From: a virus
Lineage: Duplodnaviria > Heunggongvirae > Uroviricota > Caudoviricetes
Virus record (IMG/VR): IMGVR_UViG_2880406838_000002
Span: 1-18,486 of that record
Direction: 5' to 3' (one strand)
Length of the DNA: 18,486 bases
Position 1 is the stretch's first letter, and each line of letters opens with the position of its first letter. A program made the position numbers. Positions 3,001-6,000 of the stretch are shown here, one piece after another.

Positions 3001-6000
3001 TATACCAGTCCACCCACGTTAGTGTGGCCAGTTCCACTTCTGCACGGTTTTTCCAGCTCTTACGGTGTATTACCTCCGCTTTGTAAAGACCATTGATGCT
3101 CTCAGCCATCGCGTTGTCATACGAGTCGCCTGTACTCCCTGTTGATGCCAGTAATCCGGCTTCTTTTAGTCGCTCCGTATAGGCCAGTGACACATACTGA
3201 GAGCCTTTATCGCTGTGATGGATGGTGCCAGACGGACGACGGGCCCACAACGCCTGCTCCAGCGCATCCAGCACGAATGTCGTTTCCATAGACGATGAGA
3301 CCCGCCACCCCACGATGTATCCGGCAAACACATCAATGATAAACGCCACATAGACGAAGCCCTGCCATGTGCTGACGTAAGTAAAATCAGCCACCCACAG
3401 CTGGTCAGGTCGTTCTGCCACGAACTGACGGTTTACGCGGTCGCCTGCGGCAACGGCTTTCCGGCTGATGGTCGTACGGACCTTTTTACCCCGGAGAACA
3501 CCGGCAAGTCCCATAACCGCCATGAGACGTGCCACTGTACATCTGGCCACCCTGATTCCTTCCCGTAACAACTGACGCCAGACTTTACGCACACCGTACA
3601 CCTGATGATTTTCATCGTATACGCGCTGTATCTCTCTCTTCAGCCAGTCGTCGTGCTGCGCACGGGCACTGCGTTTATCCGGATGATGTCGCTGTTGCTG
3701 ACAATGGTAATACGTTGACGGGGCAATATGCAGTTCGCTGCATACCGGTCCGACCCCGTACTGCTCACGCAGCTTATCCAGCAGTGGCATCATTTTTTCC
3801 AGAGGCGGTCGAACTCCGCCTTCGCAAAATAAGCGGAAGCCTGGCGAAGGATATCGTTACTGCGGCGCAGTTCACGATTTTCACGTTCCAGCTCTTTCAG
3901 ACGCTGACGTTCAGCGCTGGTGAGCCCACCATCACCGCCCCCGGTATCCCGCTCATGCTGGCGAACCCAGACACGCAGAGTCTCCGGCGTACAGCCAATC
4001 TTTGGGGCAATGGAACAAATTGCCGCCCACTGTGAGTCATATTCATCCTGACTTTCCAGAACCATACGAATCGCCCGCTGACGGACTTCGGGGGAAAAAC
4101 GAGTATTTTTAGTCATCCTGTTTACCTCTTTCTCAGGGAGTTTAGTCTCCAGGATTTCCGGGGCGGTTCAGTCCATACGCCAACGATATCTTTGTATGGT
4201 ATGTAGCTGACACCTTCCAGACCATCGTTACCACCTGGACCAGTGATGAGCACAGACGCTATGGCAACAGCCCCACCACCAATAGCAGCTGCAACAGCCT
4301 TGCGTAATGACGGCGACATTATTCACCTTTCGCAGCCTTACGCTTATCTTCTTTAATCTTGAAATAAAGATTTGTCAGATACGTCAGCAGGCCAAACAGC
4401 AGACTTCCCAGCACACCTATTGCCACCCACTGGGACGGAGAGACTTTGTCCAGCAGCTGCAGTAACCAGTATCCCGTCCCCACCGCTGACGTGGTGTATG
4501 ACACACCTGTTGTGATTTTTTCCATCTGATGTATGTCTCCGTCACCGCCGACAGAAAATGAAAGTAAAGAAAAACAAAAAAGCCGCCAGTGTCACCCACT
4601 GACGGCCAACGCCGGGAGCCGTGATTATGGCATTCAGGCTCTGCTAAAAATGCCAGATAACATTCCGGCCTCCCCTGATTCAGGTTATAAATGACACAAT
4701 ATCTTGACAACATCCGTCACTGTCTGTCAGAAAATGTACTGCCATATAGAAGCAACATGTGAAGTACATCTATCCTTTTGAGCCAGCACCTCTCCACCGA
4801 AAGTCAGTGCTGGCTGTTTTTTTCCTTAATAAGGCATCTGTAACTGAAACAATCCGCATATTGATAATATATTGACAGGCATCATTGCTGTCTGTGAAAA
4901 ATAAGTCTCTACAAACATATAAGGCCTTTTAGCCAGCGTCTTCTTTTTCAGGTCAGTCGCTGGCTTTTTTTATTATGCTGCCGGTGCATTTATCTCCAGC
5001 ATCAGACTTTCTATCTCAACGCCATACGCTGCATTTTTTGTAACATCCGTCAGCGTCAGCGCATTCAGTCCCAGTGTCAGACTGTCTTTTATAACCTGGA
5101 ATGCCGGGCCAGCCACTCCATTCAGTTTCGGAGTAACCGTGGCACTGCCGGCGGTGAACACCAGCTCCAGCGTCTGCCAGTCGTTACCGTAATCGCCGAA
5201 CTCCCCCAGCTTCGTGTTTCCGGCTTTCCTGTGATGCATCAGATTCACTCTGCCGTCAGTGGTCTGAGTGAAGTACGACATCAGGAACGGATTACCGGTA
5301 CCCGTCATCGCCACACCATCAGGAACGGGAGCATCCGTATACAGATAAATCCCCAGCCCGAACTGATTGTTGGTCAGTGCGCCTGACAGGCGGAACTTAC
5401 AGGTCTGTCTGCCGCCCTGTGTCAGCAGGGTAATTGCGTCATCCACCGGATGCGTCAGGGACCAGGTTTTATTGCTCTGCTTGGTGATCTTAAATACACC
5501 ATCTGACAACTGAATTCCGCCATCCTTAATGCTCCAGCCCTGCGCAGCAGCCTCTCCGGCTGCCGGCAGCAGGGAGATTGTGCGAACGGACGTATCTGCA
5601 GACGGACCCGATGGCGTGTTGCCGCCGGGCGAGGGTTTGATTTCCGGTGCCTTACCACTGATGAAGGCTGAGGTGCGCCCGGCTGCGTTCAGAATAGCGG
5701 TTGCCAGACGATCCGGAATAATGCTCCTGCGCGCCCATGAACTGAAATGTGTCGGGCGGTTTGATGATACCTGGTTTCCATTCGTTCTCGATGCCGCACC
5801 GTAATATCCTGATGCCGGAATATCCGGATCTTCTGCCGGCGCGTTAGTGGCGGTATTGACGCCGTTACCGTCTGTCATGAAGGGCACAAAATAAACGCCC
5901 TCACTCTCCCTGTTTTTATACCCGCCGTACACGGTGTCGTACTGGGTAGCGTATGTATTTTTCCAGTAATACGTCGTGTCACCACAAACCCACGGCACAT

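Follow-up and report, generated by a model that had tools for sequence, protein, structure and literature searches.

We examined an 18,486-nucleotide (nt) stretch of Caudoviricetes DNA (IMG/VR virus record IMGVR_UViG_2880406838_000002; hereafter the window), a lambdoid prophage remnant whose late genes lie on the minus strand. The 447-nt spacer between the stop codon of its esterase gene and the start codon of its holin gene (positions 4526–4972) carries two tandem paralogous units on the plus strand, which an earlier note, made from the sequence alone, had put forward as candidate small RNA (sRNA) genes. That interpretation is supported. Unit 1 is the already published sRNA PasA, and unit 2 is already on record as the tail of a 236-nt PasA form, as an entry in a data set from sequencing of ligated interacting RNAs (RIL-seq), and as the Hfq-binding peaks EcOnc51 and EcOnc52. 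We hold with good confidence that the best explanation of these data is a pair of tandem sRNA genes in the esterase–holin spacer, transcribed against the late operon and linked by partial read-through. Both units being known, our additions are modest: unit 2 is a probable separate paralogous gene, and the related sRNA PasC is a probable fusion of the two.

Five prophage sRNAs of enteropathogenic E. coli (EPEC) E2348/69 were described by Pearl Mizrahi et al. (2021, Sci Adv; PMC8550237). Among them, PasA was validated by Northern blotting, depends on Hfq for its stability in that strain, and has 41 RIL-seq partners, 36 of which are coding sequences or 5′ untranslated regions (UTRs), mostly of the core genome. 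Table S6 of that paper gives PasA a start at NC_011601 position 743499 and a major 3′ end at 743415 (85 nt), on the minus strand and opposite the esterase and holin genes. This interval aligns to window positions 4739–4823 on the plus strand, where all 85 of 85 nt are identical by blastn, and the PasA fragment printed in Fig. S5 of PMC8550237 matches 4762–4812. The same table places PasA between E2348C_0688 (esterase) and E2348C_0689 (holin) in the orientation '> < >', and a later study (Zhu, Shabalina and Storz 2026; bioRxiv 10.64898/2026.05.13.724894) sets PasA and PasC beside the holin–lysozyme operon, with PasD2 across the esterase gene. The window shows the described synteny, with the esterase and holin genes on the minus strand and PasA on the opposite strand between them.

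The agreement extends beyond the RNA itself. The E2348/69 PP2 spacer is identical to that of the window over its whole length, and the spacer of phage 434 is likewise 100% identical; the phage 434 record annotates three terminators in it, namely both antisense hairpins and a late-strand one before the holin gene. PasA of E2348/69 is like unit 1 in sequence, spacer, relative strand, terminator, and seed, and its promoter is also identical. The host alone differs, the window being an O111-like remnant by ybhC with an insertion sequence (IS) in its endolysin gene.

Table S6 of PMC8550237 also lists a minor 236-nt form of PasA ending at 743264, which maps by alignment to 4739–4974 (plus strand), and its 3′ end at window position 4974 is the second terminator. 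Because a single start is paired there with two 3′ ends, the longer form is a product of 3′ read-through from terminator 1 to terminator 2, and because the published Northern probe sits within PasA, the 236-nt band contains PasA. Zhu et al. ascribed the mature PasA 5′ end to cleavage of a longer transcript. Position 4739 fits a primary start 30 nt after the TTGACA at 4704–4709; PasC likewise starts 30 nt after its TTGACA, and both RNAs begin with CUGCC. According to the text of Fig. S5 in PMC8550237, the seed proposed for PasA is GCCAGCACCU (4782–4791, plus strand), which shares bases with the 5′ arm of the terminator stem, an arrangement that Zhu et al. regard as unusual.

Both units follow one plan on the plus strand: TTGACA, a CTGTCTGT block and then an A-rich stretch, a CCTTTT tract, an AGCCAGC/GCTGGCT hairpin, and T7. 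The earlier note had reported a perfect TTGACA in each unit and a hairpin of this form followed by T7, and these are found where it placed them. Its shared block is also present but corresponds to CTGTCTGT, since unit 1 reads ACTGTCTGT and not GCTGTCTGT. In unit 1, the −35 element (4704–4709, read from the sequence) is invariant in all aligned PasA- and PasC-type spacers, and a putative −10 region after an 18-nt spacer (4725–4733) consists of TGT and then the weak hexamer CAGAAA. The CCUUUU tract (4774–4779) lies directly before the stem of the intrinsic terminator (4781–4823), whose 9-bp base is formed by AGCCAGCAC (4781–4789) pairing with GTGCTGGCT (4807–4815), followed by G and T7 (4817–4823). 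In unit 2, the −35 element likewise read from the sequence (4872–4877), a putative −10 region of TGT and GAAAAA after an 18-nt spacer (4893–4901), and a CCUUUU tract (4925–4930) precede an intrinsic terminator (4931–4972) in which AGCCAGCGTCT (4931–4941) pairs with AGTCGCTGGCT (4955–4965) ahead of T7 (4966–4972), ending one base short of the esterase stop codon.

The terminator modules of the two units fold at −16.3 and −16.5 kcal/mol. The 67-nt unit 2 RNA folds with z = −3.9 into a 25-nt single-stranded 5′ region, which contains UACAAACAU, and then the terminator. Each unit has the GC-rich hairpin and the U run on the transcribed strand that characterize Rho-independent termination, and the published 3′ ends fall at both U runs. 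All terminator variants across the loci that we compared also fold, their stems being kept through compensatory or wobble changes. According to a paper citing Otaka 2011, the 3′ module of Hfq-binding sRNAs comprises a U-rich tract, a terminator hairpin, and a 3′ poly-U. Both units carry such a module as CCUUUU, a GC-rich hairpin, and U7, with a G before U7 in unit 1. Ishikawa 2012 is reportedly a further source for this definition.

A global alignment of unit 1 (4696–4823) with unit 2 (4864–4972) scores 32, whereas shuffled sequences score 3.4 ± 2.7 (maximum 17 of 2000; z = 10.5) and the best of 966 control segments from the window scores 18. Because this score is far above both shuffles and controls, the units are paralogues, as the earlier note had proposed, beyond a mere similarity of design. 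The possibility that they are chance look-alikes without function is exceedingly remote. It could draw on the weak −10 hexamers and on the lack of any enrichment of TTGACA by itself (8 sites in the window versus 13.5 expected), so that this hexamer is informative only in combination with the other elements. The combination is another matter: the window has two occurrences of AGCCAGC-N10-25-GCTGGCT-N0-1-TTTTTT, against none in 200 shuffles, the similarity of the units stands well outside the shuffled range, and unit 1 is an experimentally validated sRNA, so that the published PasA data already refute a chance origin.

Unit 2 corresponds to an RNA of about 66 nt (~4906–4972, plus strand), with its 3′ end at the U7 tract and a 5′ end that we infer. 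In EPEC, it is represented by the RIL-seq entry 'pasA.E2348C_0688.IGR' of PMC8550237, which lies on the PasA strand between PasA and the esterase gene and includes the U7 tract. The entry has five partners, four of them coding sequences or 5′ UTRs, and is the second RNA in every chimera; its chimera with escD maps to 4944–4971. It was recovered with 119 and 54 fragments in two conditions, and, relative to those of PasA, its chimeric fragments amount to 2.4% under activating and 47% under non-activating conditions.

In enterohemorrhagic E. coli (EHEC) Sakai, the corresponding RNAs are EcOnc51 (Sp12, 2237479–2237555, plus strand) and EcOnc52 (Sp4, 1181998–1182075, minus strand), listed in Table S2 of Tree et al. 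(2014, Mol Cell; PMC4104026) as Hfq peaks from crosslinking and analysis of cDNA (CRAC). Both are orphan sites, predicted as sRNAs and flagged as having a Rho-independent terminator, and are reported there without Northern blotting or characterization; we found neither name in the main texts of the literature. The coordinates of Table S2 refer to an older version of the Sakai genome and were converted to NC_002695.2 (loci L003–L010 and L094). The shift is close to 0 at 1.18 Mb, a value resting on the position of one probe (EcOnc08) and on the agreement of the EcOnc51 and EcOnc52 intervals. Rfam matches to AsxR and AgvB put it at about +137 at 1.27 and 1.94 Mb, and HnrS/EcOnc10 puts it at +131 to +148 at 2.234 Mb. 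The EcOnc22/23/24 probe was not found in the Sakai loci examined and was not used as an anchor.

With these shifts, EcOnc52 (shift 0) falls at window positions 4906–4983 and EcOnc51 at approximately 4905–4981 (start 4899–4916 and end 4975–4992 over the range +131 to +148). A search of published EHEC prophage sRNA sets, which the earlier note had suggested, leads in this way to unit 2 for both peaks. The mapping is backed by the near-identical intervals, the identical Sp4 and Sp12 sequences, and the similar peak areas, and, relative to the window, the only differences in the Sakai copies are a loop shorter by 2 nt and an inserted CT ahead of the U run. Uncorrected NC_002695.2 coordinates would instead equate EcOnc51 with unit 1, an assignment ruled out by the shift anchored with AsxR, AgvB, and HnrS. 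EcOnc51 and EcOnc52 are called 'homologues of PasA' in PMC8550237; here they correspond to the second unit and not to the 85-nt PasA.

The earlier note had envisaged short independent plus-strand transcripts of roughly 65–85 nt. For unit 1 this proved correct nearly to the base, and for unit 2 it is correct as regards the RNA; comparative evidence favors a start of its own for unit 2. On the whole, we lean moderately toward independent transcription of unit 2 from its own putative promoter. Otherwise, unit 2 would not be a gene but a back-up terminator for PasA, the RNA at 4906–4972 would derive entirely from read-through, and the second TTGACA and A-rich block would be inert leftovers of a duplication. 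We consider this account unlikely, even though the published annotation agrees with it in giving one start (743499) and two 3′ ends, with the 85-nt form major and the 236-nt form minor. The 236-nt Northern band, which contains PasA because the probe lies there, and the small share of unit 2 chimeras relative to PasA chimeras under activating conditions (2.4%) also point that way. However, a probe within PasA is blind to a 66-nt unit 2 RNA, so that the absence of such a band from the blot is uninformative. Moreover, the CRAC table for Sakai Sp12 has a peak at unit 2 but lacks one at unit 1 of that spacer. The 5′ edges of the CRAC peaks lie 28–29 nt after the second TTGACA (~4905), where a transcript from the second promoter would be expected to start, and the ratio of unit 2 to PasA shifts 20-fold between conditions.

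Conservation of the promoter elements provides the other argument for independent transcription. The layout TTGACA-18 nt-NA(G/A)AAA recurs in five variants, with CAGAAA in unit 1, GAAAAA in unit 2, TAGAAA in the EcOnc32 type, and TAGAAA and TAAAAA in the two units of the spacer L069, and most of these have a TG just upstream of the −10 element. L069 is an IMG/VR spacer that was retrieved via its holin, and its retrieval is therefore independent of the promoter. Its ~400 nt before the holin gene are strongly diverged but keep the same plan, a late-strand terminator and then two antisense units, with three terminators in all. Compared with unit 2, the downstream unit of L069 retains ATATTGACA at the −35 element, AAAAATA at the −10 region (which reads (G/T)AAAAATA across the two), and UACAAAnAU as conserved islands, whereas only about one-third of the 18-nt spacer matches (by eye on the alignment) and the terminator differs in sequence with its pairing kept. 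These conserved islands speak against the read-through account.

Several points weigh against two independently transcribed genes. The authors of PMC8550237 assign the EPEC unit 2 RNA to a read-through isoform of PasA, and the published papers assign PasA no function as yet. The −10 hexamers match the consensus at 3 of 6 positions (CAGAAA and GAAAAA), as weak as the earlier note had judged them, and both are without the usual final T, although each unit has a perfect −35 element, an 18-nt spacer, and a TG two bases upstream of the hexamer. A generic promoter scan called neither promoter because of these weak hexamers. CRAC peak edges are approximate, and because unit 2 is identical in Sp4 and Sp12 and reads map to several copies, the reads cannot tell which copy of unit 2 is expressed. 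The footprint argument draws mainly on one lineage (L069-type, three loci), because unit 2 is 97–100% identical in most loci. Finally, unit 2 occurs alone, with its promoter intact, beside IS629 in Sakai Sp4 and on EHEC plasmids (90% identity), but we rejected unit-2-only loci as evidence of promoter selection: their intact promoters prove nothing because the search pattern required the promoter.

The units run against late transcription, as the earlier note had stated, and their overlap with the late transcript is confined to the intercistronic spacer and does not include the holin coding sequence. In another explanation, the hairpins act mainly on the late (minus-strand) transcript or as DNA-level barriers. 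They could serve the esterase mRNA as 3′ stabilizers or as sites of processing, or could uncouple esterase from holin expression through convergent transcription or sense/antisense duplexes, with any trans role secondary. The unit 2 hairpin starts immediately after the esterase stop codon. In PMC8550237, the 3′ end of the esterase gene (NC_011601 743175–743305, plus strand) is listed among the RIL-seq partners of PasA. A strong late-strand intrinsic terminator stands between the units and the holin gene (4571–4607, minus strand; an 11-bp stem and then TTTTTGTTTT, −21.7 kcal/mol), 45 nt upstream of the holin start codon. This is the late-strand terminator annotated in phage 434; every PasA- and PasC-type spacer keeps it, and spacers of the L016 and L069 types have an analogous hairpin, so that a late-strand terminator with one or more antisense units recurs even in diverged spacers. 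It would halt polymerase without Q modification ahead of the lysis genes.

A late-strand RNA fragment from the spacer, 'pasA.E2348C_0689.IGR' (4726–4744, minus strand), is also present in the RIL-seq data, in a chimera with PasB, and a promoter-like site CAGACA-17-TATATT (4866–4894, minus strand) overlaps the unit 2 promoter. Together, the site and the fragment hint that an RNA from the late strand may run antisense to the whole of PasA. On the other hand, no U run lies 3′ of either unit hairpin on the minus strand, and the hairpins are therefore not late-strand terminators. The PasA partners, 36 of 41 being coding sequences or 5′ UTRs and mostly from the core genome, are those of a trans-acting RNA. 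We regard a principal role on the late strand as doubtful; it is in any case compatible with, and not exclusive of, the explanation by two tandem sRNA genes. A cis role is possible, either through convergent transcription or through pairing with a long esterase 3′ UTR ending at the late-strand terminator.

Under the favored explanation of two tandem sRNA genes, sigma-70 RNA polymerase would start about 30 nt after the TTGACA at 4704 and stop at the AGCCAGCAC/GUGCUGGCU hairpin and U7 to give the 85-nt PasA, for which the CCUUUU tract, hairpin, and U7 tail would serve as the usual Hfq-binding 3′ module. PasA would then pair in trans with many mRNAs via GCCAGCACCU, the 3′ end of the neighboring esterase mRNA being one of them. 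A minority of polymerases would pass terminator 1, run on, and terminate at the second hairpin, directly beside the esterase stop codon, producing the 236-nt isoform. Unit 2 would be a diverged tandem copy whose promoter, TTGACA-18 nt-TGT-GAAAAA, would most likely also fire on its own to yield the ~66-nt Hfq-bound RNA. With their own promoters, which face away from pR′, the units could therefore be expressed, without depending on late transcription, from a prophage that is silent or, as here, defective, whatever role they may have for the phage.

Known RNA families other than PasA did not account for the units. The Rfam check suggested by the earlier note returned no family for the spacer, whether at the gathering threshold over the whole window or at E ≤ 10 over 4400–5100; only the IS3 frameshift pseudoknot (ALIL) passed. 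Weak snoRNA, U12, and Hrs10 matches were on the wrong strand and far below threshold, and we attribute them to chance. AgvB, AsxR, and STnc100 had no match in the window, although these families were found in the Sakai control loci. Like the units, AgvB and AsxR (RF02702 and RF02703) are short Hfq-binding RNAs of lambdoid late regions whose 5′ end varies and whose 3′ terminator module is conserved, but their locus lies between Q/stx and the esterase gene, and 4400–5100 has no RF02702 or RF02703 match even at E ≤ 10. HnrS (EcOnc10/11/12), a 66-nt multicopy prophage sRNA published in 2026, resembles unit 2 in size and differs from it in sequence and locus: it is complementary to the mazF 3′ end and the hha ribosome-binding site and is encoded downstream of the lysis genes, the Sp12 copy lying ~2.6 kb past the holin gene. 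An anti-sRNA (sponge) role for unit 2 was dropped because its RIL-seq entry is without sRNA partners.

We surveyed the spacers of 80 IMG/VR loci with a related holin. About 12 of these have two units, about 7 have a single PasC-type unit (~293 nt), one (L031) has unit 1 alone, with its stem kept by a two-sided change from C:G to U:A, and about 11 are of the EcOnc32 type. Unit 2 without unit 1 is found at about 100 places on plasmids of the EHEC virulence type, as in locus L092 (from plasmid NZ_CP027339.1; locus positions 2450–2710). There it is accompanied by 87 nt of decayed sequence left from the esterase 3′ end and lies beside uilS and IS elements, the homology starting right after the unit 1 T run.

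PasC of E2348/69 (79 nt; prophage PP5, L002) shares the promoter, the CUGCC 5′ end, and the 5′ body of PasA, but its hairpin is unlike that of PasA, its terminator abuts the esterase stop codon as in unit 2, and its spacer holds one unit. The PasC hairpin, AGCCAGCGUCC...GGGCGCUGGCU, is exactly that of unit 2 in the two-unit IMG/VR locus L135, and an L135-like spacer becomes the PasC spacer once ~150 bp between the repeated CC(T/G)TTT(G/T)AGCCAGC are taken out. The PasC locus thus looks like an L135-like locus after a deletion between short repeats at the bases of the hairpins, and PasC looks like a fusion of unit 1 and unit 2. Zhu et al. state that the pasA copies are not products of tandem duplication; they did not count the second unit as a copy, and their search, requiring >75% coverage, would have passed over it. 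We infer that the pair arose by duplication.

EcOnc32 of Sakai (Sp3; ~112 nt by Northern blot in Tree et al. 2014) is a positional analogue of PasA and unit 2. Like them, it is antisense, lies upstream of the holin gene, and has a terminator that abuts an esterase 3′ remnant; its TTGACA-18-TAGAAA and its terminator core, GCCAGCG...CGCUGGC, also resemble those of the units. It differs in being a single unit without BLAST-detectable similarity to units 1 and 2 outside the terminator base and the esterase remnant. EcOnc32 lies at NC_002695.2 ~901580–901706 (minus strand; L094) and is among the strongest Sakai Hfq peaks, and the esterase gene there is deleted save for its last ~60 nt. Beyond prophages, OmrA/OmrB and PrrF1/PrrF2 (cited in Zhu et al.) are adjacent same-strand duplicated sRNAs with their own promoters and terminators, conserved 3′ modules, and differing 5′ regions. 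The pasA pair differs from them in that independent transcription of its second gene is a matter of likelihood. At PrrF1–PrrF2, read-through of the first terminator is also known to give a long form.

Over its full length, the window is best matched by an E. coli O111 chromosome, next to ybhC. On the late (minus) strand, the antiterminator gene Q occupies 8294–9067. The upstream late gene is the esterase gene (4973–6823), encoding a SASA-family sialate O-acetylesterase of the nanS-p type (Pfam SASA, DUF1737, and DUF6645). The downstream late gene (4319–4525) encodes a class II holin of the S21/pinholin type (Pfam Phage_holin_2_1, E = 1.2e-32), and the same holin is annotated as a class II holin in the phage 434 record. 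A 172-nt late-strand stretch immediately upstream of the esterase gene (6910–7081) is 100% identical to PasD2 of E2348/69 and is not called as STnc100 by Rfam at the gathering threshold. Three copies of IS629/IS1203 (IS3 family, 1310 bp, with the ALIL frameshift pseudoknot) lie at 2861–4170 (minus strand), 12369–13678 (plus strand), and 18100–18486 (plus strand), and the inverted copies suggest rearrangement of the prophage. The first of these interrupts the endolysin gene, which runs from 4319 to 4169 and, after the IS, from 2860 to ~2509, and the lysis cassette is inactive because the gene is split. We found no tRNA or tmRNA genes in the window. Mechanical open reading frames in the spacer (4533–4694, plus strand; 4417–4713, minus strand) have no counterpart in the curated phage 434 record, which has no coding sequence there.

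These findings have practical uses. A PasA probe cannot detect unit 2, and our additions can therefore guide the choice of probes and deletions; they also correct the mapping of the Sakai EcOnc coordinates to the current genome version. As a calibration, a reader of raw sequence placed two real sRNA genes within 1–2 bases of their published ends. For the RNAs themselves, our results clarify the relation of PasA, PasC, and the second unit, within a family whose members rank with the most connected sRNAs of the EPEC accessory genome and occur in up to several prophages per EHEC or EPEC genome. We are inclined, by a slight balance of likelihood, to a broader view in which unit 2 would be a separate ~66-nt Hfq-binding sRNA gene with its own promoter and a conserved 5′ seed, UACAAACAU, the spacer would be a recombining sRNA cassette, and PasA, unit 2, PasC, and EcOnc32 would form one family of exchangeable 5′ bodies and terminators. 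If true, the published statement excluding tandem duplication as a source of pasA copies would need revision.

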